Below, in pieces: positions 6,092 to 59,260 of a stretch of 64,000 nucleotides of DNA (positions are counted from its first letter, which is position 1; the number at the start of each line of letters is the position of its first letter). The stretch spans positions 693,078 through 757,077 of the forward strand of contig NZ_CP155447.1 of the NCBI RefSeq assembly GCF_045290345.1, read 5' to 3'. Under the pieces are notes generated by a model. It saw only the letters and a list, made by a program, of their open reading frames with translations. It ran no database searches and had not been told where the DNA came from. Source of the DNA: Singulisphaera sp. Ch08 (GTDB lineage Bacteria > Planctomycetota > Planctomycetia > Isosphaerales > Isosphaeraceae). The position numbers and the translations under genes are program-made.

Positions 6092-7159
6092 ATGAGAACT
6101 CGTTCGAGAACCGCGTTCACACTCATTGAATTGTTGGTCGTAATCGCAATCATCGCCGTTCTCATTGCCTTGTTGCTGCCCGCGGTGCAAGCAGCGCGTG
6201 AGGCTGCCCGGCGGTCACAGTGTGTCAACAACATGAAGCAGATTGGACTCGCGCTGCACAACTACCACTCTACGAACAATGCTTTCCCGCTCGGCGCCAC
6301 CTGGCAACCCTTCGAAACGACAGGCTGGTCATTCACCGCCACCGGCGGCTTGACCGGCGCTAGTCAAGACAACTGGTCATGCTGGAGTATCCAGGCGCAA
6401 ATGCTCCCGAGTATGGAGCAGATGGCGATCTACAACAGCATCAACTTCAACTTTTCGTGCTATCGTGGGACGGCCGGACCGGTCAACTCGACGGCGTTCA
6501 CCACGAGGATTGCCTCATTCCTCTGCCCATCCGACGGCAATGCGGGCAATACAAACACGAACAACTACCACGGCAGCATCGGAACATCGCTCTACAGCAC
6601 AAACAATGCCGACAGCACCGGCATTTTTAACTATCAGCAAAAGTACACGGTCGCCGACATCAAAGACGGCACGTCAAACACAATCGCCTTCTCCGAGGCT
6701 CTCGTGGGTGAGCGGAGCAGTGGGACGTTCGGACGAGGCAACTCGACCGGAAACGTCGCCTCGGCTGGATTTGGCACAGGGCAACCGTACGATGTCAGCG
6801 GGAGATTGAGCGACATCAAGGCTGACATCCAGGCCTGCATCGGCGCCTTCAAGTCGAGCACCTCAACGAACCCGCGGAATGACCGCGGTTTCCGATGGGG
6901 CCAAGGCGCCATGGGCTTGACGCTCTTCAATACCGTGATCACCCCCAACGGCGCCCAATTCAATGCCTGCCGAATTGGATGCTGCACCCAGGCGAGCCAC
7001 GCTCACTATCAGGTCGCGACAAGCAACCACTCCGGCGGTGTCAACGCTCTGCTCGGCGACGGCAGCGTCAAGTTCATCAAAGACTCGATCGCCTACCCGA
7101 CCTGGTGGGCCCTCGGCACCCGCGGCTTCGGCGAAGTCATCAGCGCCGACTCCTACTGA
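6092..7159 (+). CDS. DUF1559 / prepilin-type N-terminal cleavage-methylation domain protein.
   Basis: The translation starts [60 protein letters not shown] and ends HSGGVNALLGDGSVKFIKDSI...WWALGTRGFGEVISADSY. A GGGAGGG lies 6 nt upstream of the ATG. Confidence 0.9.
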   Translation: MRTRSRTAFTLIELLVVIAIIAVLIALLLPAVQAAREAARRSQCVNNMKQIGLALHNYHSTNNAFPLGATWQPFETTGWSFTATGGLTGASQDNWSCWSIQAQMLPSMEQMAIYNSINFNFSCYRGTAGPVNSTAFTTRIASFLCPSDGNAGNTNTNNYHGSIGTSLYSTNNADSTGIFNYQQKYTVADIKDGTSNTIAFSEALVGERSSGTFGRGNSTGNVASAGFGTGQPYDVSGRLSDIKADIQACIGAFKSSTSTNPRNDRGFRWGQGAMGLTLFNTVITPNGAQFNACRIGCCTQASHAHYQVATSNHSGGVNALLGDGSVKFIKDSIAYPTWWALGTRGFGEVISADSY

Positions 7160-7305
7160 GTTGTTTGCCGCTCAGACCTTCGTCCCCAACGTTGGTCCGG
7201 GCCCATGCCTGGCATCACCGAGAACGAGATCAAGGGGGCCGGGACGAACGTCGTCCCGGCCCCCCTTTGTTTTATATCAACGATCCGCGACTGGGCGAGA
7301 AGCTT

Positions 7306-7412
7306 GAGGGATTTCCGGCCCGGCCGTGCGAGGGAATTACGGCCGGGCCGGCCGTGCTACTGCAAACATCCCGTGGCGGAAACCGTAAGGATCATCGGTT
7401 CTTTTGCTCTTT
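7306..7412. repeat. Interspersed repeat, family C (~105 bp).
   Basis: The core GAGGGAATTACGGCCGGGCCGGCCGtGCTACTGcAAAc...GGCGGAAACCG.AaGaATCATCgGt.CTTTcGCTC.tTCGCGGATCGTTG is shared with the copies at 15313 and 59153. It contains a GGCCGGGCCGGCC palindrome. It sits between convergent genes. Confidence 0.75.
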
Positions 7413-7474
7413 CGCGGATCGTTGTTTTGGATTCGTTGGCTTCGACCTCGTTCAGCGTGCGGCGGCGGCCGAGG

Positions 7475-10615: not shown

Positions 10616-10790
10616 GAGTCTGTCACAAGCAAACCGGGCCCTCTGTCCGCCCCGTAGGCCGAAATTCGCGGGAGAAACTCGTTCCCACGCTCGACGTGGG
10701 AATGCCGTCCTGGCCGCTCTGCGGCCCTACCCGCCGGGGAAGACGACGCGGAGCGTGGGAACGAGATCCCGGTATCCTTGCTGCAGTCTC
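10616..10790. repeat. REP-like repeat, family A, long variant.
   Basis: It has the same core as 1709-1910, including the extra GTGGGAATGCCGTCCTGGCCGCTCTGCGGCCCTACCCGCCGG module. Confidence 0.8.
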
Positions 10791-11417: not shown

Positions 11418-11531
11418 GAGTCTGTCGCAAGGAAACCGGGCCGTCTGTCTGCCCCGGAGGCCGAAAATTCGCGGGAGAAACTCGTTCCCACGCAGAGCGT
11501 GTGAACGAGATCCCGGTATCCTTGCTCCAGC
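11418..11531. repeat. REP-like repeat, family A, short variant.
   Basis: It has the core GAGTCTGTCGCAAGGAAACCGGGCCGTCTGTCTGCCCCGGAGGCCGAAAATTCGCGGGAGAAACTCGTTCCCACGCAGAGCGTGTGAACGAGATCCCGGTATCCTTGCT. Confidence 0.8.
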
Positions 11532-11695
11532 CCTTATTCCTTCACTTACAGCGATTTACCCTCGCGTCGCTTACATCGTTGTAACCGGGGTCTGTGACCC
11601 CGGGGCGAATGCCAAGACCGGGGTCACAGACCCCAGCGACAAAAGGGTTTCGGTCGCCATGATCCGCGAGCGACCCGATGGTAAACCGCGTTAGG

Positions 11696-11874
11696 TTAGA
11701 GCGGTTTACGATCGCATTGCGCACGGTGGAGGAAAACGGGGACTGGCTCCCGGCCCGCTCCATGCTCGGCTTTTCCGGACGACCTGGCGGCCGGGTGCCT
11801 GTCCCCATTTTCCGCACGTGCTCCTGAGTCTTGAGACCAACCACCGTGCGCAACGCATCCGCAAACCGCTCTAA
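11696..11874. mobile_element. MITE-like element, family B, with ~33 bp terminal inverted repeats.
   Basis: The left end is TAGAGCGGTTTACGATCGCATTGCGCACGGTGG and the right end is CACCGTGCGCAACGCATCCGCAAACCGCTCTAAG, which are reverse complements. A second copy lies at 22877-23130. Confidence 0.7.
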
Positions 11875-11917
11875 GCACGTGGACCTGGTCTTTCTTTGCA
11901 TTGAATCATGTGCAAAT

Positions 11918-12005
11918 CATGGGTGCCACGGGTTGTACTCAACCCGTGAGCCAAAAACCCGGGCAATCGTTCACGGGTTGAGTACAACCCGTGGCACCCG
12001 ACGGC
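11918..12005. repeat. Long perfect inverted repeat (hairpin, ~29 bp arms).
   Basis: GGGTGCCACGGGTTGTACTCAACCCGTGA ... TCACGGGTTGAGTACAACCCGTGGCACCC. Confidence 0.7.
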
Positions 12006-12060
12006 GATTGCAGCACCTCGGTCACCTATCAGAAAATCAAAGAAAACTGAGACCAACGGC

Positions 12061-13128
12061 TTAGAAGGAGTCAGAACTGATCACCTCGTTCCCCGCGATC
12101 GTCGCAAGGCTCCACCACGAGTAGACGTTGATCGAGTCCTTGATCCAGCGAACGCCGCCGTCCGCCATCAACATACTGACCCCGCCGGGGTGCCTGCTGC
12201 TAAACACCTGACCGTACGGCTTGACGGCCTGGTTGGGGGGATACTGATTCGGCTTGTAATTCCGGCTCGACGGGGCGTTGGGGGTAAAGACAAGCACCTT
12301 CGCGTGGGTCGGGGGAAAGATCGTCCCATGTGTTGACGTGTGCGTGCCCGAGCCCCAGTAGGGGCCCATCGACACCTGAAATTTGTCCTTGACCGATTCA
12401 CCGCCCAGGAAAGTGTTGCTCATTCCATCCTGGATGTCGGAATCCTTCGTGGAGAGGTCGTTAAAGAAGGCTCCTCGAAGACTCGGGTTGGGCATGCCCG
12501 TCCCGCGAACCCCTGGGCAGTTATACTCGTTATACTGACATGAAGAGACCATATAATTGCTTCGCACCGCACTCTGTCGCGAATACGAGGATTTATCGCC
12601 GGAAGCCGAACTAATCCTTTCATCGGTTGCCGTATCAGACGGGCAGGCGAAAACCGACACGATCGAGCCCACCACGGTGGTGTTGACGACCGCATCCCCG
12701 AGTAGGGTGGTATTCGGTGGACCATTGTCATAGATCGTCGTGGACCACGCGGAGTTGCTCGACGGCTGGCTGAAGTTGTAAGCATTGTGAAGCGTGGACA
12801 ACTCAAGATAATTCAAGATCATCGTGAACACGGTTGTGTTCAGCACCAGACCCTGGCCGCCATTCGAATACTGGCATGACCCCGAGAAGATTTTCGCGGG
12901 GGGCAGACCCGTGTTCGAGGAGAGATAGTTGTGCATCGCCAAGCCGATCTGCTTCAGGTTGTTCGTACACTGAGACCGGCGGGCCGCCTCCCTCGCGGCC
13001 TGGACGGCCGGTAACAGCAGCGCAATGAGCACGGCAATGATCGAAATCACAACCAACAGTTCAATGAGCGTGAATCCCTGAATCCTCCGAGGACGCAGAG
13101 ACAGAGCCTCTCGCTGAGAAGGTCGCAT
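12061..13128 (-). CDS. DUF1559 / prepilin-type N-terminal cleavage-methylation domain protein.
   Basis: The translation starts [71 protein letters not shown] and has the C-terminus [27 protein letters not shown]. An AAGGAGAG lies 6 nt upstream of the ATG at 13126-13128. The ORF track extends to 13311. Confidence 0.9.
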
Positions 13129-13485
13129 GTTACTCTCCTTCACGATCGGACAAGGAATGGATGTCGCGTCGGAGGTAATGAAAGATCCGACGCCGGCTGG
13201 ACTTTCCATCGGGAGAACGACATCGAGAGCCGATACCCGCAGCCGAGAATCAACCCCAACTCGGCGCGGCGATGGCTCGGAAGCTTCGGCCGTGTCAGCA
13301 TGCATAACCACAAGCCTATTCGTTCACAAAACCCATCCGGGCCTCAAGCGGTGGGGGGGACCATTCAGGCACACGTCGATCCTCACGGGCTGTCTCAAGT
13401 CGGATCGCCTGATTTGCTTCAAAACAAGGATGCCAGGCGAGTCAGTGTCGATCTCTGATCGATTGACGAGGAGAACCATCCGGGC

Positions 13486-14880
13486 TCAGAAGAGAGCGGC
13501 GATCGATTCGCCCTCACAGACGCGGAACGGCCGGCCCTGTCGGTCGCGAATTTCGAGGTCGGTCCGGATGCCCAGGGCATGATAGATCGTCGCGGCGATG
13601 TCCTGGGGTGAGACGGGGTGGTCTCGCGGATAGGCCGCATGCTGGTCGGAGGAGCCGTAGAGTTGCCCCCCCTGGATCCCACCGCCGGCCAGCACGGCCG
13701 TCTGACACGATCCCCAGTGGTCGCGTCCGCCGAACTTGTTGAGTTTGGGCGTGCGTCCGAACTCCCCGTACATGGCCACGATCGTCTCGTCGAGCAATCC
13801 GCGTTGCGACAGGTCTTCCAGGAGAGCGGAATAGGCAAGGTCTAGCGGCGGCAGCAAGTAGTCCTTCTTGAGCATGCCGCAACAACTCAAATTGGGTCCA
13901 CCATGAGCGTCCCAAATATTCATCACGTTTCCATTGGGCTGGATGTAATGCCAGACGACGGAAACGAGCCTCACACCCGCCTCGACGAGACGACGGGCCA
14001 GCAAGAAGCTTTCGCCGTATTCGTTCCGTCCGTAGCGATCCCGGAGTCTCGGATCTTCCCTCTCGAGGTCGAAGGCGTGCTTGGCCTCGGGGCTCGTGAG
14101 CATTCGCACCGCTTGCTGGCGGAAGATGTCGAGGCCGAGAGGGGAATCGGGCCTGACCTGGTCGAGCCGTCGATCAAGGTTTTCGATCCGCTGGAGGATG
14201 CTGTACCGGTTTCGAAGTCGCCGATCGCTCAATCCGTCGGGAAGTTCCAGGCTATGGGGGGGCGGCCCCTCGACCTCCCCCGGCGGCTTGAGTTCAAGCG
14301 GGTCGTATTGAGGACCGAGGAACCCCGCATGGGTCCCCGAGTAGGTCACGCCGTCATGACCGACCGGACGCGGAATCGTCACGGTCGCGGGAAGGTTGCC
14401 CGGTGGCGAGAAGCGGGCGACGACCGAACCGACCATCGGAAAATCCGAACGACGCCTCTGTCGTGGAGCCCCCGCAAGAGTCGGGTCGATCGTGCCGGTC
14501 AGTGTGTGGTAGACGCTCGGGACGTGGTCGTTGCTCTTGTGGGTGAGTGAGCGAACGATGGCCATCTTGTCGCTATGCTGCGCCATGAGAGGCAAGTGGT
14601 CACAGAAGTCGATGCCGGGAGTCACGGTCGCCACCGGAGAGAATTCGCTCCGAATCCCCTCGGGAGCGTTGGGCTTCATATCCCACAGGTCCTGCTGTGG
14701 CGGGCCGCCCCAGAGGTAGAGCAGGATGCAAGACTTGGCGCGTCCGCCGCCGCGAACCTTGCTTCCCTCCAACGACTTCAGGGACTCGGCGTGAAGCAGA
14801 CCCGGTAGAGTGACCACTCCGGCCCCGATCTGCCCGAGCCGGAGCATGAGATCACGGCGAGAGAGATTCGAGTCGTTCAT
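13486..14880 (-). CDS. DUF1501 domain protein (sulfatase-like fold) with a twin-arginine signal.
   Basis: The Tat-like N-terminus reads MNDSNLSRRDLMLRLGQIGAGVVTLPGLLHA. Family-typical blocks include ...GGGRAKSCILLYLWGGPPQQDLWDMKP... and HWGSCQTAVLAGGGIQGGQLYGSSD. Confidence 0.85.
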   Translation of the reverse strand: MNDSNLSRRDLMLRLGQIGAGVVTLPGLLHAESLKSLEGSKVRGGGRAKSCILLYLWGGPPQQDLWDMKPNAPEGIRSEFSPVATVTPGIDFCDHLPLMAQHSDKMAIVRSLTHKSNDHVPSVYHTLTGTIDPTLAGAPRQRRRSDFPMVGSVVARFSPPGNLPATVTIPRPVGHDGVTYSGTHAGFLGPQYDPLELKPPGEVEGPPPHSLELPDGLSDRRLRNRYSILQRIENLDRRLDQVRPDSPLGLDIFRQQAVRMLTSPEAKHAFDLEREDPRLRDRYGRNEYGESFLLARRLVEAGVRLVSVVWHYIQPNGNVMNIWDAHGGPNLSCCGMLKKDYLLPPLDLAYSALLEDLSQRGLLDETIVAMYGEFGRTPKLNKFGGRDHWGSCQTAVLAGGGIQGGQLYGSSDQHAAYPRDHPVSPQDIAATIYHALGIRTDLEIRDRQGRPFRVCEGESIAALF

Positions 14881-15312
14881 GTGTTCCTTCTCAGTGGGGA
14901 GACCTTGTGACGGTCAAAGCAACGTTTGCTAGCGGCGAAAGCGGAAGGCCCAGCTAACTCTCTACAAGACACCAGCAATCCACACAATTCACACGTTGCA
15001 AAAGGTGGTTATGACCACGTGCAATCTCTCTTCCAATCCGTCAAAAACACCAGCCGTGTCATACGGCCGAGTCTTCATCGTTCGCCTCCCGATTTCGATT
15101 TCACCTAATGATTTCCTTACTAATGATTCCTGCCAGCTCAACGACTCAACTCCCATTGATTTTTCCACACATTTACACACTCAGTATTCAATCAAGCAGT
15201 CTCAAAAGCTCGCCAAACCAAGGGTGAGCACTTGAAGAGCAAGCTGGGCGGCTCGGCTCCGATCAGTCGTATCGATCCCATCGCTTACCAACACAATCCG
15301 CTGAAGACGCGT

Positions 15313-15415
15313 GCCGACCCCGAGGGAATTACGGCCGGGCCGGCCGGGCTACTGCAAACCAATCCGGTGCGGGAACCGCATGAATCATCGGGTCTTTCGC
15401 TCTTTCGCGGATCGT
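15313..15415. repeat. Interspersed repeat, family C.
   Basis: The sequence is GACCCCGAGGGAATTACGGCCGGGCCGGCCGGGCTACTGCAAACC...TCTTTCGCTCTTTCGCGGATCGTTG. It sits in the divergent intergenic region next to an AT-rich patch. Confidence 0.75.
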
Positions 15416-15843
15416 TGAAAAGGAACCCGTACCGAGCGTAGAGAACGCGAACCATCAAAACGCGATCCAGGTCAGCATGCCACCCGATCCAAACCGGGCT
15501 GGTCTCCACACCCGGGAAAGGCGCCGCGCTGGTCGCGGGTTGGATCGAGGTAGCATACGGCGACGAAGGGTCTTATCACCGTTGATAAATTGAAAATGCC
15601 GCTTAAGAGCGGATTAAACTCTCAAACCAAACTCTCTTTCATGACGGCGCTCGCAAACACTCGATACGTCCCACTCTGCAAGGTCTGGGAAGGTCGGCGT
15701 CGCTTCATCGGACCGTACCTTTCAAGCTCTGAAGACACCCCGATCACAACTTCGCCAATCCTTTGTGTGCTTGACGGAAACCTTGCAGGTGCTTCAATAG
15801 GGCGAATCTCGCTCGATCTTGAGTCCAAGTTCCGAGACGATTC

Positions 15844-17043
15844 ATGTTCAACTTGGAATTGTTGGGGATTGAACCCATCATCAACGCTTCCGGCGCGGTA
15901 ACGCGACTCGGAGGTGCTCCCATGCCGGAAGCGGCCCTGGATGCGTACTGCGCCGCGGCGCGGACGTCGATCCCTCTGGACCATTTGCAGGGAGTGGCGT
16001 GTCGCGTGATCGCGGAGGTCACCGGCGCGGAAGCCGGCCTGGTCACGTCGGGCGCAGCGGCTGCGCTCACCCTCGGGGCCGCGGCCATTCTGACGGGTTT
16101 CGACCTGAATAAGATGGAGCGGCTCCCCCATTGCGAGGGGTTTCCTCATGAGTTCGTCATGGCCCGCGAGCAACGCAACGGCTACGACCACGCCGTCCGT
16201 GCGGCGGGTGCCCGCCTGGTGGAGGTCGGCTTCCACGAACCGGTTGCCGGATCGGGTGTGCGACGGGTTGAAACCTGGGAATATTCTAGTGCCTTTGGCC
16301 CTTCAACGGCCGGCGTCCTTTATGTCTATGGCTCGCGGTCGCGACCTCCCTTGGTGGAAGTGGTCGAGGCCGCGCACGACCATGGTTTGAGCGTGCTGGT
16401 TGACGCAGCGGGCGAATTGCCGCCACGTGCCAACCTGCACGACCTCATCGCCAGTGGCGCGGATCTCGTGGCGTTTAGCGGTGGAAAGGCGATTCGAGGC
16501 CCGCAGGCCACGGGGATCCTCTGCGGCCGGCGTGAGCTCGTCGGCGCCGCAGCCTTGCAAATGCTCGACATGGACGACCACTTCGAGCTCTGGGAGCCGC
16601 CGGCAAACCTGATCGACAAGGCACGACTCCCCGGACTTCCTCGCCACGGGATCGGCCGCGGAATGAAGGTTTCCAAGGAACAGATCGTCGCCCTGCTCGC
16701 GGCCCTACGTCTCTTCACCGAGGGGAGATACGACCAAGACCTGGGCGGTATGCAAGCCAATCTCGAGCGGGTGGCATCGGCGTTGGAAGCTTCGACAGTA
16801 CACTGCTCGCTGATCGTGCCGGCCGACGCCCAGAGCCTTCCGACACTCGAGATCCTCCTGGGCGAAGCGGAACTCGGCCGTTCCGCCTTCGAGGTCTGCC
16901 GTCGACTCCGTCACGGCAAGCCTCCGATCTATGTGGGCCACAGCTTGCTCGACGAAGGCAAGCTTCTGATCAATCCCCTGCACTTGAATGAGCATCGAAC
17001 CACGGTCCTGGCGAAGCGTCTCCGGGAGGAATTGTGCCGATGA
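15844..17043 (+). CDS. SelA-like PLP-dependent enzyme (L-seryl-tRNA(Sec) selenium transferase / DgaE-like family).
   Basis: The translation starts MFNLELLGIEPIINASGAVTRLGGAPMPEAALDAYCAAA... and has a PLP-lysine block FSGGKAIRGPQATGILCGRRELV of the kind found in SelA-family proteins. The stop overlaps the next gene's start. Confidence 0.6.
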   Translation: MFNLELLGIEPIINASGAVTRLGGAPMPEAALDAYCAAARTSIPLDHLQGVACRVIAEVTGAEAGLVTSGAAAALTLGAAAILTGFDLNKMERLPHCEGFPHEFVMAREQRNGYDHAVRAAGARLVEVGFHEPVAGSGVRRVETWEYSSAFGPSTAGVLYVYGSRSRPPLVEVVEAAHDHGLSVLVDAAGELPPRANLHDLIASGADLVAFSGGKAIRGPQATGILCGRRELVGAAALQMLDMDDHFELWEPPANLIDKARLPGLPRHGIGRGMKVSKEQIVALLAALRLFTEGRYDQDLGGMQANLERVASALEASTVHCSLIVPADAQSLPTLEILLGEAELGRSAFEVCRRLRHGKPPIYVGHSLLDEGKLLINPLHLNEHRTTVLAKRLREELCR

Positions 17044-19421
17044 ACGTGTTCACAAACGAAGAAATGCTCCTTCGGCTCGGGAAAGGCGAACCGATCGCAT
17101 CGGTTTGTTCCGCCGCCGGATTGACTCGCGAGGAGTTCGGCAGTTGGTGGAGAAACGAGTGTCGCCGACGAGTACCGGCCGATCGGGGCCGTCGACACTT
17201 CGGAAGCCTCGCACACAACGTCGAGATTCGCCGCGATCGATGGGGCATCCCCCATGTGAAGGCCGGCAACGATGCCGATCTGTTCTTCGGATTCGGCTAC
17301 GCCACTGCGCAGGACCGGCTGTTCCAGCTCGAGTACCTCCGTCGCAAGGCGCGAGGAACCTTGGCCGAAATCCTGGGCCCGCGGGCGACGGAATCTGACA
17401 CTCTCTACCGCACCATCGGACTCGCCGCCATTGCCGACGCCGAATGGGCCAGCCTGCCGCAAGAGACCCGGTTGTTACTGACAGCCTACAGCGACGGAAT
17501 CAATGCATTAATCGCGGAAAGCCTGGACAATCTCCCGGTTGAATTCTCACTCCTCGACTATCAGCCCGACCGCTGGGCCCCCACCGATTCTCTCGTGATC
17601 ACAGGCGAGTTTCGCTGGTATCTCACAGGCCGATTTCCGATCATCATGATTCCGGAGCTGGCCAAGCGCCACCTCGGCGACGGACCTCTTTACAACGCCT
17701 ATCTTCAAGGCGAAGCCGACGAGGAAAGCATCCTTCCCCGAAACCCCGCTTCCTCAGCCACCCGGAGCTCGGACCGGGTCGGAAGCACCGTGAGCGATCC
17801 TGGTGAGGGGCATGGCAGCAACAACTGGGTCGTGTCGAGCGCCCGGAGTGCCACCGGCAAGCCTTTACTCGCGAGCGATCCTCACGTCCCGTTCGGCGCT
17901 GTCTCGATCTGGCAGGAGATTCATCTCCAAGGAGGCTCCTTCAACGTGGTCGGAGCGGCCTTAGCGGGAATGCCGGCCATCATGGTCGGCCGAAATCCGC
18001 AAGTGGCGTGGGGGATCACCAACAACATCTGCTCGCAACGCGACCTCTACCTCGAACGGATTGATTCCGCCCAGCCGGACTGTTTTCTCTTCGATGGCGA
18101 GTGGGAGCCCGCATCCCGTCGTGAAGAAGTCATCAATATTCACGGGGCGGACAGTCAGGTGATGACCGTCCGATCCTCAAGGAATGGGCCGATCATCGAC
18201 CACCTCCTCCCCCCGAAGGCAACCGAAGCCGGCCCCGTCTCGGTCCGCTGGCTGGGAAAAGAAGCGTGCGGCTGGATTCCGGCCCTACTCGACATGGATC
18301 GTGCTCGCTCCTGCGAAGAGTTCCGCACGGCCACGAAGCCCTGGCTGGTGCCGACGTTCAACCTCGTCTTCGCGGATAGCGAGGGGCATATCGGCCACCA
18401 GACCACGGGCAGGATCCCCCTGCGTGAGGTCGCGACGAGGGGATATCGGCCGGGCTGGGATCCCCGGCACCAATGGAAGGGGCTGACTTCCTGGGACGAT
18501 CTGCCAAGCATGACCAACCCGAGCGGCGGCCTGATCGTGACGGCCAACAATCGGCTCGCGCCCGATGATTATCCCATCCCCCTTTCAGGAACATGGTCGA
18601 GCGGCTACCGAGCCCGGCGAATCCGGAGGCAACTGACCGACCAAACCGGATTGACGCTCAAACGCTTCCAACGCCTCCAACAAGACGTCTTCTCCGAACG
18701 AGCGGAAGATCACCTGCCGCATTTGCTCCGGCTGCTCGATGGCGAAACCGATCCCCGCGTCATCGAAGCCATCGACGTCCTCAAGGCATGGGATTGCCGG
18801 TCCGACTCAAATTCAGTCGCAGCCACACTCTTCAACGTCTTCTTCGAGGAGTGGTGTCGAACCGTCATGGCCGAACGTGTCCCCTCCGAAGACGTCGAGC
18901 TGCTCGCGGCCGGTGCGGGCGGCCTATCCGCCGCGCTCCTCATCGAGGATCAAGTCGGTTGGTTTTCCCTTCATCAACGCCAAGCGGCCGTAAGAAAGTC
19001 ATTCCACGCGGCGATTGATCGCCTGAGCAAGCGATTCGGCCCCGCCATTGGGGAATGGACATGGGGCCGGTTGCACACCTTGGTTCAAAAGCACTTCTTG
19101 TCGGGACACGGTGATCTTGGAGTTCTCTTGGATCGCAGTGGTCTCGCCATGAGCGGCGACGGCCACACCGTCTCCAGCTCGACGCCGGACGCGAACTTCG
19201 GGGCATGGCTTGGAGCAGGCTACCGCATGGTCGCGGACCTGGCCGACCCGAGACAAGGGATCTACGCCGTGGAGATCGGGTCCACCTCCGGACACCCCGG
19301 CAGCCCCCACTACGACGATCAACTGGCCCTCTGGTCGGATGGCGGTTACCACTACCTGGCCCTGCAAAACCCGGAAGAATCGGATTGGGCCGTACTTCAC
19401 TTGCAGCCGGAGGCCCCTTGA
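17040..19421 (+). CDS. Penicillin amidase / acyl-homoserine-lactone acylase family Ntn-hydrolase (S45), with no signal peptide.
   Basis: Blocks include ...VEIRRDRWGIPHVKAGNDADLFFGFGYATAQDRLFQLEYLRR... and the beta-subunit nucleophile block GSNNWVVSSARSATGKPLLASDPH. There is an ATGA overlap with the upstream gene. A GTG at 17034 is an alternative start. Confidence 0.8.
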   Translation: MNVFTNEEMLLRLGKGEPIASVCSAAGLTREEFGSWWRNECRRRVPADRGRRHFGSLAHNVEIRRDRWGIPHVKAGNDADLFFGFGYATAQDRLFQLEYLRRKARGTLAEILGPRATESDTLYRTIGLAAIADAEWASLPQETRLLLTAYSDGINALIAESLDNLPVEFSLLDYQPDRWAPTDSLVITGEFRWYLTGRFPIIMIPELAKRHLGDGPLYNAYLQGEADEESILPRNPASSATRSSDRVGSTVSDPGEGHGSNNWVVSSARSATGKPLLASDPHVPFGAVSIWQEIHLQGGSFNVVGAALAGMPAIMVGRNPQVAWGITNNICSQRDLYLERIDSAQPDCFLFDGEWEPASRREEVINIHGADSQVMTVRSSRNGPIIDHLLPPKATEAGPVSVRWLGKEACGWIPALLDMDRARSCEEFRTATKPWLVPTFNLVFADSEGHIGHQTTGRIPLREVATRGYRPGWDPRHQWKGLTSWDDLPSMTNPSGGLIVTANNRLAPDDYPIPLSGTWSSGYRARRIRRQLTDQTGLTLKRFQRLQQDVFSERAEDHLPHLLRLLDGETDPRVIEAIDVLKAWDCRSDSNSVAATLFNVFFEEWCRTVMAERVPSEDVELLAAGAGGLSAALLIEDQVGWFSLHQRQAAVRKSFHAAIDRLSKRFGPAIGEWTWGRLHTLVQKHFLSGHGDLGVLLDRSGLAMSGDGHTVSSSTPDANFGAWLGAGYRMVADLADPRQGIYAVEIGSTSGHPGSPHYDDQLALWSDGGYHYLALQNPEESDWAVLHLQPEAP

Positions 19422-21007
19422 TGTTGATCGGATACGTGAGCGACGAGCAATATTCCGCCTTGCCCGACGTCTTGCTGGAGTTCGTCAAGGAAGGCGAATC
19501 ATGGGAGGCTCGTTCTCGTGCCAGTGGCGCCGTGCACGGCGACATCCCACCCGGTAACTACCTGGTCACCGTGGCCAAGCCGGGATTCGGCTCGAAACGG
19601 ATTGCCCTGTCCTTCCCCCGGAGTAAACCGTACCAGTTCCGCCTGCTCTCCGACGCCCTGCTGGGCTATGCCTGGCCAAAGTCCGTTCGAGGCGGCATGA
19701 GCGGCGAATTTCGCGTCCATTCCACCGAGCCGTATCAGCTCGAATTATGGCGTTACGGCCTGGAGAAGGAACACGTTTTATCCCTGGGGTGGCACGACGA
19801 GCATGCCCCGAGATCAGTCGTCCAGACAATACCCGATGGTGATTTCACCCAAGTCGGCGCAGGTTGGAATGGGGTGGGATACCAGAGTGCTCATCACTGG
19901 CAAAAGGTGGTGGCGCCTGACCGGTCAGGACTCTACTATTTCCACGCGTCCACCCCTTCCGGACAGTCGTTTACCTTTCCATGGGTCGTCGCACCGTCAA
20001 GGCCGCGGTCGCCGATCGCGGTCCTCGCCTCGGACATCACATGGAATTCCTACAACTCATTCGGCGGGCGCAGCAACTACATTCATGCGGACGCGCTTCC
20101 CACCACTCCGACGGTCTGCTCGCGAACCGAGCTGGCTCGTTATCTCGATGAAGAGTACCTGGGCTGGAATTGCCGATCTTATGCCCCGCTGTCATTCGAT
20201 CGCCCGGAGCCATTCAATCACGTCGATCTGAAAACAAGAGTCACTGATCCGATTTCCGGTCGAGCGGCCTGCCACCTCGCCCCCGCGGAGTGGAGGCTCC
20301 TGGGGTGGCTCGAGCGTGAAAAGTTCGCACACGACCTGTACAGCGAAACCCAACTCCACCACGGCGAGGTCGATCTGTCCGCCTACCGAGTCCTCATCCT
20401 GGGCGCGCATCCTGAGTATTGGACGCGGACGATGTACGACCGCGTGAAGTCCTGGGTCTTCAATGAGGGCGGACAACTCATGTACCTCGGCGGCAACGGA
20501 TTGAACTGCGAGGTCGAGTTGCGCGACGACCAGACGATGGTGGCCAACAACGGCCAAATTCGCAGCCTCTGGCCCGCGGGGATCGGCGCGGAGAGCCGCT
20601 TTGCCGTCCGCCACGAATCCGAAGCGCGATTGCTGGGAGTCGTCTTCGACCCCGCCGGCATCATGACGGCCGCCCCCTACCGAGTCATCTCGGCAGACCA
20701 CTGGGTTTTCGCCGGGACCGGCCTCGGCGAAGGCGACCTCTTCGGCGTGAACAGCCTGCATGAGCGATGCCCTGGAGGTGCCTCGGGACACGAGACCGAT
20801 AAGATTTCGCCGAATTCCCCGTCGAATGTCAAACTGCTGGCCAAGGGGCTCAACCCCGACGAGGGGGGCGCGGAGATGGCCATATTTGAAACCCCGTCCG
20901 GAGGATCCGTGTTCTCGGTCGGCTCAATCACCTACATCAGCTCACTGCTCTGCGACAGCGGTGTCTCACAGGTCACCGCCAATGTCGTGCGGCGATTCCT
21001 GGAATAG
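19421..21007 (+). CDS. Putative amidohydrolase resembling N,N-dimethylformamidase beta-subunit-like (DmfA2-like) proteins, with an N-terminal beta-sandwich.
   Basis: It overlaps the acylase stop in a TGATG arrangement. The N-terminus MLIGYVSDEQY...PGNYLVTVAKPGFG resembles a carboxypeptidase-regulatory-like domain. The block AVLASDITWNSYNSFGGRSNYIH resembles the conserved xxTxTWQAYN block of that family. The family assignment comes from memory and was not checked. Confidence 0.35.
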   Translation: MLIGYVSDEQYSALPDVLLEFVKEGESWEARSRASGAVHGDIPPGNYLVTVAKPGFGSKRIALSFPRSKPYQFRLLSDALLGYAWPKSVRGGMSGEFRVHSTEPYQLELWRYGLEKEHVLSLGWHDEHAPRSVVQTIPDGDFTQVGAGWNGVGYQSAHHWQKVVAPDRSGLYYFHASTPSGQSFTFPWVVAPSRPRSPIAVLASDITWNSYNSFGGRSNYIHADALPTTPTVCSRTELARYLDEEYLGWNCRSYAPLSFDRPEPFNHVDLKTRVTDPISGRAACHLAPAEWRLLGWLEREKFAHDLYSETQLHHGEVDLSAYRVLILGAHPEYWTRTMYDRVKSWVFNEGGQLMYLGGNGLNCEVELRDDQTMVANNGQIRSLWPAGIGAESRFAVRHESEARLLGVVFDPAGIMTAAPYRVISADHWVFAGTGLGEGDLFGVNSLHERCPGGASGHETDKISPNSPSNVKLLAKGLNPDEGGAEMAIFETPSGGSVFSVGSITYISSLLCDSGVSQVTANVVRRFLE

Positions 21008-21221
21008 CCGAATCCTCCGACAAAAAATTGCTCTCCACGCGGCCTTCCCTTGGACCGTTTCCGAGCTCAGCGTCACGAGCCGCTCGGCACTCCGATTTGG
21101 TTGGAATCCTTCGAACGGCTCGGTTTCACCTGGCTCGACGCCGTGACGTGATCGACAACAACAGCCCATCCGGCATCGACGGCTTACATCTTGTACGATT
21201 TTGAATAAGCTTCACCTCATG

Positions 21222-21340
21222 GAGTCTGTCGCAAGGGAACCGGGCCGCCTGTCTGCTCCGGAGGCCGAAATTCGCGGGAGAAACGCGTTCCCACGCAGAG
21301 CGTTGGAACGAGATCCCGGTATCCTTGCTACAATCTCACC
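21222..21340. repeat. REP-like repeat, family A, short variant.
   Basis: The sequence is GAGTCTGTCGCAAGGGAACCGGGCCGCCTGTCTGCTCCGGAGGCCGAAATTCGCGGGAGAAACGCGTTCCCACGCAGAGCGTTGGAACGAGATCCCGGTATCCTTGCTACAATCTC. Confidence 0.8.
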
Positions 21341-21834
21341 TCATGCCGGGAAATCATCGCATGACCAAGGGATTGCGACGTGACCATGAAGGACGGCTTC
21401 TCAGGACCAGGATATTGCTCACCCGATCCGGTCGTTCTATGATGATGACTTGCCTTGGCAAAACGAGTAATGAGCAGGGAAATACCCTGACCACTATTGC
21501 ATAACCACGTTATCTCCTAATCGAATTAAAGAGACCGATGCAGCCGATTCAGGGACGACAGTGTAACTCGCCAGATGTTCATCCCAATCCAATTGCCCAG
21601 CGGCAAGACACTCCGCATTGACAATGTGCCCGGAGCGTTCGACCGGTTGGTCATACCCGGCATCATTGACTACACGATTCGACGATAATCCGAGCGTGAT
21701 GATCGCGATAACGAGGGAAAGCGATGGTTGCGAACCAACCGTCATGAACGCCTCGCAAACGATCAAGGCCCGATGGCTCAAAACCCACTCGCGTTCCTGG
21801 GACTCCAGGAGTGATGGAAACAAATCGGGGACAC

Positions 21835-22773
21835 ATGAGGAACAGCATTCGCTACAAGGATCTCCAACTGGCGACGCTTCGGAGCTTCTGTGAGGTTGCG
21901 ACCCACGGCAATTTCACCGAGGCCAGTCGGCGGCTTCACCTTTCGGCCCCGACCGTCTGGCAGCAGGTGCGATCCTTGGAGCGCAAGCTGCAAGTGACGC
22001 TCGTGCGCCGTCAGGGGCGGACCGTCGTGCTCTCGGCCGAAGGCAAGCTGCTCTATGACTTGGTCCATTCTCATGTAGCCGGCCTGGATTCGCTGGTCCG
22101 ACTGTTCGAAGCCGGCCGAAGCGAATTGCCACAGCAGGTCACAATTGCCGCCACCCCCTATTTCGTCACGTATCATCTCCCTCAGGCGATCCAAGCCTTC
22201 GTCACCCGTTATCCAGCCGCTTGTTTAAATTTTATCATTTGCAGCTTTACCCAGGAGATCTTTCGGTCGGTGGAACGCGGCGAGGCCGACATCGGCATGA
22301 CGGTTCTCGATCACGATGACTCGCTTCCGGCTTCATTGAACTACGAGGAGCTCTTTTCACTCTCGTTGACGCTCCTGACGGTCCCACGGCATCCCCTGGC
22401 GCGAAAGCGAACCCTGACCCCTCTCGACCTGGTCAACTTTCCAATCATCATGCCTCCGACCGGGGGCGTCGATGCCCCCGCGATCGAAAGGCTCCTGCGG
22501 CGGCACAATCTTACCGACAAGATCCAGGTTGTCATGTGCACGAAAAATTTCGACATTATCATACGTTATGTCGGCCTGAACGTCGGAATTGCGCTCTGCC
22601 ACGTCGGCCCGAAGGCCTCAATGTGGATGCAAGGAGTCCATCTTCGTGAATTTGATCCCGCACTGCCTAAACTCCCGGCGGTCCTGGTGACCCGCAAGGG
22701 CGCTCACTCGCCTCCCCAGGTTCAGGAATGCCTCAACACGTTGAGACAGCTTTCCTCGTCGGCCGTGCCCTGA
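21835..22773 (+). CDS. LysR-family transcriptional regulator.
   Basis: The N-terminal HTH reads MRNSIRYKDLQLATLRSFCEVATHGNFTEASRRLHLSAPTVWQQVRSLERKL, followed by an LysR substrate-binding-like region. Confidence 0.85.
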   Translation: MRNSIRYKDLQLATLRSFCEVATHGNFTEASRRLHLSAPTVWQQVRSLERKLQVTLVRRQGRTVVLSAEGKLLYDLVHSHVAGLDSLVRLFEAGRSELPQQVTIAATPYFVTYHLPQAIQAFVTRYPAACLNFIICSFTQEIFRSVERGEADIGMTVLDHDDSLPASLNYEELFSLSLTLLTVPRHPLARKRTLTPLDLVNFPIIMPPTGGVDAPAIERLLRRHNLTDKIQVVMCTKNFDIIIRYVGLNVGIALCHVGPKASMWMQGVHLREFDPALPKLPAVLVTRKGAHSPPQVQECLNTLRQLSSSAVP

Positions 22774-22876
22774 ATTGCCCACGCCCCCCCTCCGACCGGG
22801 GGAGCGAGTTTCGTAAGGCTTCGCCGATCCCGTTTTTCCCTACGTCAACGCGATCGGTAATGGCATCATCATCGGC

Positions 22877-23130
22877 CTAGAGCGGTTTGCGGATGCGTTG
22901 CGCACGGTGGTTGGTCTCAAGACTCAGGAGCACGTGCGGAAACGGGGACTGGCTCCGGAGCGCAGCGGAGGTGCCTGTCCCCCTTTCCGCCGAGGCCGCC
23001 CGTGACGGCCCGGAAAATGGGGACAGGCACCCGGCCGCCAGGTCGTCCGGAAAAGCCGAGCATGGAGCGGGCCGGGAGCCAGTCCCCGTTTTCCTCCACC
23101 GTGCGCAATGCGATCGTAAACTGCTCTAAC
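22877..23130. mobile_element. MITE-like element, family B, copy 2, inserted inside a family-D repeat.
   Basis: Its terminal inverted repeats are CTAGAGCGGTTTGCGGATGCGTTGCGCACGGTGG ... CACCGTGCGCAATGCGATCGTAAACTGCTCTAAC. The internal segment is a palindromic rearrangement of the internal segment of the 11696 copy. Its flanks are contiguous in the uninterrupted D copy at 30541-30760. Confidence 0.7.
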
Positions 23131-23290
23131 CATTCCCGTAGGGTGGGCACGGCCCACCATCTTAAACTTCGCTTCGGCAAGGAGATAGGGATGGTGGGCC
23201 GTGCCCACCCTACGGGAAAAATCGGATTCTGGCCGCTAATCAATCATGAATCATTGATCAATTCATAACGGGTTAGGCGAAGCTTTACCC
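23131..23290. repeat. Family D palindromic repeat, 3' part. The 5' part is at 22825-22876, split by the MITE.
   Basis: It contains CCCGTAGGGTGGGCACGGCCCACCATC ... GATGGTGGGCCGTGCCCACCCTACGGG (perfect ~27 bp arms) and the tail GGCCGCTAATCAATCATGAATCATTGATCAATTCATAACGGGTTAGGCGAAGCTTTACCC. It matches 30541-30760. Confidence 0.75.
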
Positions 23291-23333
23291 TTTTTCTCTG
23301 GTTTCCTCCGTAGCGCATCATGCAACGGGCCAC

Positions 23334-26300
23334 TCACCGCGAGGCGGCCGGAACGCCCGCCGGCTTGAGCCGGGCCCCGTTGATCCAGTCGAGCAGCGTC
23401 TGGTACTCGGGCGAGCTCTTGGCCTCGAACCGGACGCCGCCGGAGTGGGCTTTTTTGGTCGGGTCGTTCTGGGCCTCGGCTTCCTCGGCGGCCTCCCAGG
23501 TTGGTTTGCCGAGGAGGAGGCTGTCGGCCGGGCTCGGGAGGTTGACGACCCGGAGCGCGGCCCGGAAGTTGGCGCGCACCGCCTGCGGTGACCACTTGCC
23601 GTCCTTGCCTGGGGCAACCATTTTGAGGATCGTGTGCGAGCGATGGCAACCGACGCAGCTTTGCCCGTCCTCACCCGCCGCGTTGAAGATCGGCAGGACC
23701 TTGGCCTCGAAGTAGGCCAGGTCGAGCAGATCGGCCGAGGCCCCCGCGCCACTCGATCGGCCGCCTGACTTCAGGAGCGCCGAGGCGATCTCCTTCTGGC
23801 GCTGGTTGTCGGTGCCCGTCAGCTCGCGCAGGCTCGCTTCGATGGCCGGGTTGGCCACCAGCTTCGGGTGCGTCTGAATCACCTCGAGCGCCTTCTCGCG
23901 GACACCGCTGTTCTCATCGACCACCCCGTTGCTGATCACTCCGATCAGTCGGAGGTCGGAGACATCCGCGTTCTTGGGAGAAACCGAGTTGAGCAGGCCG
24001 ATCCGATGCTGGGGCGAAGGGTCTTCCAGGGACTTACGCAACGCGGAGTCGGACACCTTGATCTTCGAGCCGAGTACGAGCCGGATCGCCGACACCCGCG
24101 CATCGACATCGGCATCGGCCAGGGCCTCGGCCACCTGGCTCCGGACCGAGCGGTCCGCCAGCAGTTTTGGGAACGCGGGCAAGGCCTTGAGCGCGGCGGC
24201 TCGGACCGTGGGGGCCTGGTCGTCCAGACGGTCCACCACGGCGTCCGACCGATCCGCCTCGGCCACGGGGCCCAGCCGGCTCAGAATGGCCAGGGCCGCC
24301 GCTTGCGCCTGGGGGGTCTGATTCTTCAACAGATCGTCAAGCAACGCCACCAGTTGAGCATCAGCCTGGCCCGGCTTGACCTTGAGCGGGAACTTCTCCG
24401 CCATCGTGCCGGCCCACTCGCGAACCGAGGTGTCGACATCTCCTTGCCGGGCAGTCACGGCCAGGGCCAGGGCCGGGGCACGATCGTCCCGAAGCGCCAC
24501 CAAGGCCTGAAGCGCCAGGCGGCGAATTGTGGGGTCGGGATCGGCCATCTGGCCGATCAGGGCTGCCGAAAACCGCGATTGGGCCTCGCCGTAGACAAGC
24601 ATCGGCTCCAGGTCGTTGCCGATCCGCCCGCCAAGAACCGGGCGTTCGTGGAACTCGGAGATGGCACGGAGAACCCCCTCGCGCTGGAGGGCATTGCCGT
24701 GGCCCAGGACCGCGACATACTTGTCCCCCAGGCGGTTCGACGTCGCGTGCTGCGCCTCGGTCGCGGTGTCTCGCCGCTCCTGGGTCGCCAGCGAAGGGAC
24801 CCAGTTGGTGTAGAGGTAACGAATATTCTCATCACCGATGATATAGAGAGCTTCAATCAAGTTGCGGCGAACCCAGGGGTGCCTGGGCTCGCTGAGCCTG
24901 GCGATGAGTTGATCCTCGATCCGGTTGCGCAAGGCGGAGTCAGCCTGCCAGTACCACCAGCGCCAGGCCCCTTTGATCGCCTGCAACTGGACCACCGGGT
25001 CGGAGTCATCCAGTCGCTCGAGCAGGGCATCGGCCAGCGAAAGCTCCTGCGAGAGGTCACGGAAGTGGGCCGCGAAGACGCGGGTGGCCCCGCGGCGAGT
25101 CCGGTCGTCGGGTGACCCGAGTGCCTCCTTCAAGGCCGAGACGAACCGGGTCTGTGCGATCGTCTCGCCCGGCTTGCGATTCGCGTTCAGACGATTGCCG
25201 ATCGAGCGGAGCGCTTCGGCCGAAGCGCGTTGCACAGCCTTGCTCTCATCGCCGAGCCGCGCGATCAGACCCGGGATCGCCGAGTCATCGCCGACCCGCC
25301 CCAGCGCCTCGCAAGTCGCGAGCCGGACCAGCGGACGCTCATCGCCCAGCCAAGCGAACAGGGCTTCACGCAGGGCAAGGGGAGGGGACTCCCAGATCTG
25401 CTCGAGGTCCCGGAGCGTGTGTGAAGGCGAGTCGGCCCGAAGGGTCTCGGGCTGAGGGCCGAGCGGGCCGTTCCATCCCTTGGTCCCGCCGGCTCCTGGG
25501 TAAATCCGTGAGAGCGAAAGCAAGGCCCACTGGGTCTCGCGGAACGGGGTCTGAAACTGTTCATAGGGGCTGATGTCGAGCCAGCCGCCGAAGTTCTTCT
25601 GCCTGAGCAAGAGCGCCACGACTCCCTTGCGGACGGCCGGGTGATCGGCGGGCAATCCGGCCAGCGAGAGAGCGTACAGGCTCTCGCCGGTCTGCATCTC
25701 GGTGATCGCATAATTGGGGTCGAACTTCACCGACCAGTGGCCGTTGTCTCGCTGAAGCGCGAGGAGCCGGTCGACGTTCGCCTTGATCTTGTCCGCGAAC
25801 TTCGCGGGATCAACCTGACAGAGCCCGATCGTCTGGGCGGCGAGGTCACGAGTGTTCGCCGGCTCACTGGTGGGAAGGAGCGTCGCGATCAGGTCACGGG
25901 TCTTGGCATAACGAGCGTCCCCCGTTCGGCGAACGAGCTCGTCGAGTTGTCGCCAGCTATCGGTGGCGACCTTGTATCGGCTGACCGGGTTGTTCCCATT
26001 CGACTCGTCAGGAGGTAAGTCCTTGCGGTCGTCGTAATAGAGTTTGAGAAACTCGGCGATGCCCCGATGCGTATTGTCTCGAGGGGGGCCGGCGATCAGA
26101 TTTTCCGAGTCCATCACGATCGTCGAGAGCCGCCCGAGTACGTTCGCGGGAGCGGGGATCATCCGCGCCCAGAGCGCCTCAGGGTGCCCATGGAACGGAA
26201 CCGGATTGTTCGAGAGCCGATCGAGCAGGAACCGGAGCGCAAACGGCTGCTCGATCTTGTAGCCTGAGCGTACCGCCCCCATCGCCGACTGGGTCGTGAA

Positions 26301-59152: not shown

Positions 59153-59260
59153 GCGCCGACCCCGAGGGAATTACGGCCGGGCCGGCCGTGCTACTGAAAA
59201 CCAACCTGTGGCGGAAACCGCAAGAATCATCAGTGCTTTCGCTCCGTCGCGGATCGTTGA
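59153..59260. repeat. Interspersed repeat, family C.
   Basis: The sequence is GACCCCGAGGGAATTACGGCCGGGCCGGCCGTGCTACTGAAAACCAACCTGTGGCGGAAACCGCAAGAATCATCAGTGCTTTCGCTCCGTCGCGGATCGTTG. An inverted partial copy CGTACGGCCGGCCCGGCCGTA lies just upstream at 59103-59122. Confidence 0.75.

Follow-up and report, generated by a model that had tools for sequence, protein, structure and literature searches.

Three adjacent genes in a 64,000-nucleotide stretch of DNA (the window) from Singulisphaera sp. Ch08 encode a SelA/DgaE-like fold-type-I pyridoxal 5'-phosphate (PLP) enzyme (gene 1), an S45 N-terminal nucleophile (Ntn) acylase (gene 2) and a DMFA2_C amidohydrolase (gene 3), and they are followed by a gene for a LysR-type regulator (Table 1). 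The source is a soil planctomycete of the Isosphaeraceae whose genome measures 10.8 Mb, and database entries of this strain (P0001 and P0121) match the proteins at 100% identity. With moderate confidence, we propose that genes 1-3 are co-translated and make up a catabolic module of the cytoplasm, which would act on an N-acylated alpha-amino-acid-like carboxylate and whose probable regulator is the LysR protein. The catalytic hallmarks of the three enzymes (GSNNW, SGGK and a Y/Y/H/E set) are all present, which supports this proposal, and the nearest relatives that have been characterised, for each of the three, have D-configured or N-acylated amino acids as substrates.

Table 1. Operon genes and associated features, in positions of the window.
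Feature	Position	Strand	Basis
Gene 1, SelA/DgaE-like fold-type-I PLP enzyme, 399 aa	15844..17043	+	Pfam/TIGR profile matches
Gene 2, S45 Ntn acylase, 793 aa	17040..19421	+	full-length Penicil_amidase match
Gene 3, DMFA2_C (DUF6605) amidohydrolase, 528 aa, N-terminal beta-sandwich domain(s)	19421..21007	+	DMFA2_C match
LysR-type regulator	21835..22773 (ORF from 21811)	+	HTH_1 + LysR_substrate
Dispersed repeat in the spacer before LysR	21222..21329	.	copies elsewhere in the window
Dispersed intergenic repeat upstream of the operon (context only)	15313..15418	.	copies elsewhere in the window

The three genes all lie on the + strand, and there is no intergenic space among them. Genes 1 and 2 are joined by the sequence ATGA at 17040-17043, in which the start codon (ATG, 17040-42) and the stop codon (TGA, 17041-43) overlap, and genes 2 and 3 by the sequence TGATG at 19419-19423, in which the TGA at 19419-21 and the ATG at 19421-23 share one base. 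Both overlaps had been claimed in a first-pass annotation of the window, and both can be read directly from the sequence. The open reading frame (ORF) of gene 2 could open at 17034, and the ATG at 17040 was chosen as its start. The ATG starts at 15844, 17040 and 19421 agree with the N-termini of the respective orthologues (MxxxExLGxEPIINASG, MxxxxEMLxRLGxG and MLIGYVSDE). A signal peptide is absent from all three proteins.

The three enzymes and their catalytic residues

The enzyme families named in the first-pass annotation were recovered in domain searches, which assigned the three proteins to the SelA/DgaE-like, Penicil_amidase and DMFA2_C families. Gene 2 matches Penicil_amidase (PF01804) at 5e-198 with its residues 60-777, covering profile positions 1-670 of 675. 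Its best solved relative is the D-succinylase 7EA4 (4.5e-84), followed by glutaryl/cephalosporin acylases; gene 2 is thus closest in sequence to D-succinylase, a kinship that does not imply the same substrate specificity. Ser260, located in the GSNNW motif, aligns to residue 1 of the beta-chain of many solved acylases, and the predicted self-cleavage site is Gly259|Ser260.

A signal peptide is usual in the S45 family, although it is not catalytic. As a measure of its presence we used the maximum Kyte-Doolittle hydropathy of 12-residue segments within the first 70 residues. This maximum is 1.34 for gene 2, as expected from the earlier claim that the acylase lacks a signal peptide, and reaches 2.0 or more in 97 of 138 full-length, more distant relatives. 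In place of a signal peptide, the first 45 residues of gene 2 form a hydrophilic module (EMLxRLGxGxxIAxVCxxxGxxRxEFxxWWxxECxRRVP), which every full-length orthologue retains, as do the representatives of the 16 closest clusters; these 16 likewise lack a hydrophobic N-terminus. Because this module is conserved while the distant relatives mostly have a hydrophobic N-terminus, we assign gene 2 to a distinct, putatively cytoplasmic clade of S45 acylases.

The S45 family includes acylases of N-acyl-homoserine lactones (AHLs) and PvdQ, and the PvdQ profile NF051460 is the only NCBIfam match of gene 2 (9e-29). These observations would fit a role in quorum quenching or lipopeptide processing, in which the acylase cleaves AHLs or a lipopeptide and the other two enzymes dispose of the head group. 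However, the PvdQ profile match is partial, with a score of 99.9 bits against a cut-off of 950, on which we rejected gene 2 as a PvdQ/AHL acylase, and the match to the PvdQ structure is limited to a stretch of ~120 residues, compared with the better matches to D-succinylase and the glutaryl/cephalosporin acylases. Moreover, the characterised AHL acylases and PvdQ are exported, unlike the cytoplasmic gene 2 acylase, and no nonribosomal peptide synthetase or siderophore genes were found nearby. We consider this explanation very improbable.

Gene 1 matches the Pfam profile SelA (PF03841) at 2.6e-10 and the DgaE-family profile TIGR01437 at 3e-45, the latter with a score of 154.5 bits, below the cut-off of 385. 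The score for the DgaE equivalog NF047797 (147.1 bits) is also below its cut-off of 600, and that for the SelA equivalog TIGR00474 is 46.1 bits against a cut-off of 267.9, with only residues 141-235 aligned. Given the latter score, and without a full-length match that includes the N-terminal tRNA-binding region, the possibility that gene 1 encodes a SelA selenocysteine synthase was rejected. Among solved structures, 8T7J and DgaE (7LC0) match best; gene 1 aligns with both along almost its entire length, with DgaE in two segments at profile E-values of 1e-44 to 2e-47.

DgaE deaminates a D-configured amino-sugar acid; its His162-His163 pair is strictly conserved, with His163 as the C-3 proton donor, R226 binds the alpha-carboxylate, and Arg301, Arg332 and Arg346 are proposed to bind the 6-phosphate (PMC9529869). 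The Schiff-base motif SGGK of gene 1, containing K215, aligns to SGAK of DgaE, and R229 corresponds to R226; both are invariant or nearly so in the family. The His162/His163 pair is not retained, the loop being shortened or replaced (YGS....RSR), and Arg301/332/346 are replaced by Thr/Gly/Leu. With these residues missing and the scores under the cut-offs, gene 1 was rejected as a true DgaE. Judged by its sequence, gene 1 is DgaE-like in its class of chemistry and yet not DgaE, and it is predicted to deaminate, or to carry out an elimination on, a free alpha-amino acid. Because the phosphate-binding arginines are missing, this substrate is probably non-phosphorylated, which would fit import by a major facilitator superfamily (MFS) permease rather than by a phosphotransferase system (PTS). 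Homologues of gene 1 number more than 6800 and are ~70% identical across Planctomycetota. Outside the window, the Singulisphaera sp. Ch08 genome encodes a second SelA/DgaE-like paralogue (P0126) that is 76% identical to gene 1.

Gene 3, which had been likened to DMFA2-type amidohydrolases, was assigned to DMFA2_C (PF20254; 2.4e-54) and not to an unrelated family, with a score of 185.7 bits against a gathering score of 27. A weak CarboxypepD_reg match corresponds to the beta-sandwich domain that precedes DMFA2_C. The gene 3 family has a mean column identity of 79% (16 sequences from different orders), and its profile matches N-acetyl-(R)-beta-phenylalanine acylase (8HUY) at 7e-22 and the large subunit of dimethylformamidase (DMFase; 6LVB) at 1e-17. 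DMFase contains a 2-Tyr-1-carboxylate Fe(III) site with Y399, Y440 and E521 as ligands, and H519 is essential (PMC7686228). Residues Y399, Y440, H519 and E521 align to Y211 (in the motif WNxYN), Y254 (in YxPLSF), H330 and E332 (both in HPEYW) of gene 3, and all four are invariant in the family. Gene 3 is therefore predicted, from this alignment, to be a mononuclear-iron enzyme. A true two-subunit DMFase (DmfA1A2) was rejected, because gene 3 (528 amino acids) is ~240 residues shorter than DMFase (~770 amino acids) and the small-subunit gene is not adjacent: no conserved ORF of small-subunit size was found adjoining gene 3, and the upstream gene is the acylase.

Gene neighbourhoods in other planctomycetes

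Relatives of gene 3 were collected by scanning one genome per species, keeping the best 80 loci of at least 591 relatives, and 80 loci of gene 1 were obtained by a metagenome scan. Orthologues of gene 3, with identities of 63-73%, are present in at least 591 species-level genomes. The first-pass annotation had considered that the three genes might not be syntenic elsewhere; the trio was found in the same order in five further loci, L005 (a Pirellulales metagenome-assembled genome, MAG), L023 (Planctomicrobium sp. SH661), L090, L166 and L167, and the six loci including that of the window span at least three orders. In L023 and L167, genes 1 and 2 overlap by a 4-nt ATGA, and gene 3 is preceded by a 7-nt overlap or a 2-nt gap. 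L090, L166 and L005 keep the order, the genes being separated by short gaps or a single additional gene; a Uma2-family endonuclease gene (6713-7345) lies between the acylase and DMFA2_C genes of L166, and an apparent frameshift near 14750 divides the DMFA2_C gene of L090 (13602-15189). Because the same order recurs in these five planctomycete loci, the trio is a real module, though a minority arrangement.

Partial versions of the module were also observed. Gene 1 is directly followed by the gene 3 orthologue, without an acylase, in L095 and L105, a paralogous DMFA2_C gene and a paralogous SelA-like gene are adjacent in this order in L036, and the acylase is located upstream of gene 3, without gene 1, in six loci (L004, L006, L011, L018, L031 and L066). 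Within a set of 81 loci of gene 3 orthologues, the most frequent neighbours of gene 3 are a gene for a DgoT-like (anion:cation symporter) MFS permease, mostly divergent and immediately upstream (29 loci), and an MLE-subgroup enolase-superfamily gene immediately downstream (24 loci). An S45 acylase gene (upstream) and an Amidohydro_2 gene were each found in eight loci, a creatininase-like gene in five, the PLP enzyme of the gene 1 family in three and an FmdA-like amidase in two. The same DgoT-like MFS family is also encoded divergently upstream of gene 1 in L088, L090, L091 and L118. The richest cluster, that of L023, comprises genes for MFS, FmdA-like amidase, PLP enzyme, acylase, DMFA2_C, Amidohydro_2, KdgD/DHDPS-like and LysR proteins. 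As far as their families indicate, the partners found repeatedly comprise a carboxylate importer, an alpha-proton-abstracting enolase-superfamily enzyme, more amidases, an amidohydrolase of the lactonase/decarboxylase type and a 2-keto-3-deoxy-acid enzyme.

By a rough estimate, a given gene pair lies within 5 kb by chance with a probability of ~0.002 per genome, so that ~0.1-0.2 cases are expected among the 81 loci, and the recurrences of the PLP enzyme (3), the acylase (8) and the MFS permease (29) are far above this expectation. These counts bear on the possibility that the operon is a 'grab-bag' for nitrogen scavenging, composed of adjacent, co-transcribed enzymes that have unrelated substrates and share no pathway. 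Each family stands alone in most genomes, and planctomycete genomes have a weak operon structure, as this explanation would predict. It is nevertheless decidedly unlikely in view of the excess over chance, the order common to six loci of at least three orders, the adjacency of SelA-like and DMFA2_C genes both independently of the acylase and between paralogues, and the presence of the same MFS family, in divergent orientation, upstream of gene 1 in some loci and of gene 3 in others.

The same data were weighed for a housekeeping role, in which the same chemistry would serve to salvage or recycle a compound that the planctomycete makes itself, such as a D-amino acid or an amino-sugar acid, N-acylated and set free from the cell envelope. 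The unusually high conservation of genes 1 and 3 (79% mean column identity across orders), the large number of species with a gene 3 orthologue, the often solitary position of the genes, as is typical for core planctomycete genes, and the second paralogue of gene 1 in the same genome are all in favour of such a role. On the other hand, the frequent pairing with an importer-type MFS permease and the presence of a LysR regulator, which is typical of inducible catabolism, argue against it, and most of the sampled genomes lack the acylase. We regard salvage as rather unlikely.

Several loci contain additional genes. L036 carries two sets on the same contig (981-11587), one with genes for a Kelch-repeat protein, a DHDPS-like protein, a DMFA2_C paralogue (58% identity), a SelA-like paralogue (40% identity) and a creatininase-like protein, and the other with Amidohydro_2, MFS and the gene 3 orthologue, which suggests a family of related pathways. 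The Kelch-repeat and DHDPS-like neighbours (L036, L105) showed no recurrence by sequence across the loci, and a sialic-acid-type reading was dropped for this reason. In L050, L053 and L068 (~11600-17000), three tandem-spaced MLE-type enolase paralogues lie 3' of the gene 3 orthologue, with a creatininase-like gene between them. Finally, gene 3 orthologues that are 64-68% identical are present on the MAG contigs L014, L056, L060, L040, L067 and L076, which are labelled Candidatus Kuenenia, Akkermansia muciniphila, Chitinophaga, Alcaligenaceae or Bacteroidales; these labels probably reflect mislabelled planctomycete bins or binning contamination.

Regulator, spacer and dispersed repeats

The regulator annotated as LysR in the first pass contains the domains HTH_1 (PF00126; 1.8e-18) and LysR_substrate (PF03466; 5.6e-30). 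Its ORF opens with a GTG at 21811, and the alignment of the orthologues begins at the ATG at 21835. An orthologue in L023 (13752-14705), 57% identical, occupies the same downstream, co-directional position, and because this position is the same in two orders, the LysR protein is the probable regulator of the operon. The 800-bp spacer between gene 3 and the LysR gene also contains a small ORF on the - strand (21494-21745) that encodes 83 amino acids (MTVGSQPSLSLVIAIITLGLSS...) and is extendable to a TTG at 21823. Its product has a signal-peptide-like N-terminus, and it is divergent from the LysR gene, the classical position of a LysR target; a counterpart of this ORF was not observed in L023.

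The REP-type (repetitive extragenic palindromic) repeat that had been noted in the spacer belongs to a dispersed family of ~110 bp, whose copies are 88-94% identical and which looks REP/MITE-like (MITE, miniature inverted-repeat transposable element). The spacer copy is 94% identical to the sequence at 11418-11526, and further copies are located at 10616-10690 plus 10746-10782 and at 1725-1783 plus 1861-1911; in the longer variants the 3' part is duplicated. The hairpin core is GTTCCCACGC..GCGTGGGAAC, also given as GTTCCCACGC-AGAGC-GTGGGAAC. The second, different repeat lies in the 960-bp region 5' of the operon. It has copies at 59155-59260 and 7329-7424 that are 88% identical, and is probably not functional for the operon.

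Scans for sigma-70 promoters and terminators gave background levels only, and an Rfam scan of positions 14800-23400 detected no riboswitch or leader. The only Rfam matches were sub-threshold microRNA-like hairpins outside the operon, including microRNA-precursor matches on the - strand at 23118-23227 (40 bits against a gathering score of 94); the long hairpin at this position, in the spacer between the convergent LysR and HEAT-repeat genes, is probably a terminator or another palindromic repeat. The flanking genes belong to common, non-metabolic planctomycete families (DUF1501, DUF1559 and a HEAT-repeat protein).

Proposed pathway and comparison with known systems

We propose that the substrate would be imported by an anion:cation-symporter-type MFS permease like that encoded beside these genes in other planctomycetes; for the present operon, this permease would be encoded elsewhere in the Singulisphaera genome. 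The self-processing S45 acylase, with Ser260 as the nucleophile, would then take off the N-acyl group, which is possibly dicarboxylic by analogy with D-succinylase and the glutaryl acylases. The DMFase-like enzyme, with a putative Tyr211/Tyr254/Glu332 iron centre, would hydrolyse an amide that is small or hindered, whether as a second target or as an alternative one, and the DgaE-like PLP enzyme would turn the freed alpha-amino acid, likely D-configured and with a beta leaving group, into a 2-oxo acid and ammonia. What each amidase does, which acyl group is removed and in which order the steps follow is what we infer. An attractive but unproven class of candidate substrates is N-acyl-2-amino-2-deoxy-aldonates (GlcNAc1A-like amino-sugar acids); N-acyl-D-Ser/Thr-like compounds are the alternative candidates.

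The first-pass annotation had suggested a catabolic or tailoring pathway for an N-acylated amino compound. As a proposal, the type of substrate is strengthened by the solved relatives of the three enzymes (D-succinylase, the 8HUY acylase and DMFase, and the ammonia-lyase acting on D-glucosaminate-6-phosphate). Tailoring is less likely than catabolism, because the neighbours in L023 include transporter, aldolase and lactonase-type genes.

Several observations weigh against the proposed catabolic module. Across genomes the three families are mostly non-adjacent, with solitary genes in, for example, L001, L002 and L165, and obligate coupling of the three genes is therefore not established. No transporter, aldolase or kinase gene is present near the operon within the window. 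A LysR gene usually lies divergently from the genes that it controls, whereas the one here is co-directional and 800 bp downstream. The scores for the curated equivalogs are all far below their cut-offs, the three subfamilies have no known substrate or activity, and the need for two amidases is unexplained. As for the iron site, the column of Y254 and Y440 sits in a low-confidence stretch of the profile alignment, and the AlphaFold model of gene 3, based on the 16-sequence alignment, has a mean predicted local distance difference test (pLDDT) value of 59.8, with values below 50 over residues 209-265. Because this model is too poor for checking the geometry of the site, the iron-site claim rests on the profile alignment.

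All parts of the operon belong to known superfamilies, and the logic of deacylation and deamination under a LysR regulator is familiar. The combination was not recognised as a described pathway in the first pass, and a search of the accessible literature likewise found no paper describing this combination of families, DUF6605 or 8T7J; a search on 'beta-phenylalanine acylase' returned nothing. The source annotations are generic. It is possible, though doubtful, that Planctomycetota share a pathway, as yet undescribed, for N-acylated amino-sugar acids or D-amino acids (e.g., oxidised chitin or envelope-derived compounds of the GlcNAc1A type) that uses DMFase-like and DgaE-like enzymes non-homologous to those of the ong cluster discussed below, with the operon in the window as its most complete 'deacylate twice, then deaminate' core. 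If true, this would reveal the natural function of the 2-Tyr-1-carboxylate iron amidases, a family of which, to our knowledge, the only members reported so far are those of a degrader of a synthetic solvent and an industrial acylase.

The natural role of these iron amidases and the cytoplasmic S45 acylase clade are the most valuable leads. The sole mechanistically studied member of the DMFase family acts on a man-made solvent. N,N-dimethylformamide (DMF) is a synthetic compound, and the natural substrate of gene 3 must therefore differ from it. A conserved planctomycete branch that keeps the unusual iron-site residues in a reproducible neighbourhood makes this role experimentally approachable. 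The penicillin-acylase-type clade would be cytoplasmic and has a novel N-terminal module, and D-selective acylases are of biocatalytic interest. More generally, the operon points to an unrecognised pathway yielding nitrogen and carbon that would be widespread in soil and freshwater planctomycetes.

Each of the three enzymes can be compared with a characterised counterpart. Gene 2 shares the arrangement of alpha-chain, spacer and beta-chain, the Ser nucleophile and the GSNNW motif with the D-succinylase of Cupriavidus sp. P4-10-C (7EA4) and with the glutaryl-7-ACA/cephalosporin acylases, but differs from them in having no signal peptide and in its 45-residue hydrophilic module, which is found only in the ~16 closest clusters. 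Gene 3 has the DMFA2_C catalytic domain in common with DmfA2 of Paracoccus (6LVB) and with 8HUY, and the HPEY motif and the two tyrosine positions of the Fe(III) site in common with DMFase. Its N-terminal domains are different, however, and in contrast to the dmf operon its partners are an S45 acylase, a DgaE-like lyase, an MFS permease and an MLE-type enolase. Gene 1 keeps the fold-type-I SelA-like family, the SG(G/A)K lysine and the alpha-carboxylate arginine of DgaE, and differs by the lack of the His-His pair and of the phosphate-cluster arginines, by scores far below the equivalog cut-off and by the absence of a PTS or DgaF context.

At the level of the whole pathway, the closest parallel in logic is the ong cluster of Pseudoalteromonas, in which OngB is of the D-aminoacylase type and OngC is a putative D-amino acid deaminase. 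There, a deacylase and then a deaminase break down GlcNAc1A 'like D-amino acids' (PMC9537276). The ong enzymes are non-homologous to the S45 acylase, the DMFA2_C amidase and the DgaE-like lyase, and the analogy is a functional one only. The logic proposed here would be the same, namely that an N-acyl sugar acid resembling a D-amino acid is deacylated in the cytoplasm and then deaminated, giving a 2-keto-3-deoxy acid, with a regulator dedicated to the pathway.

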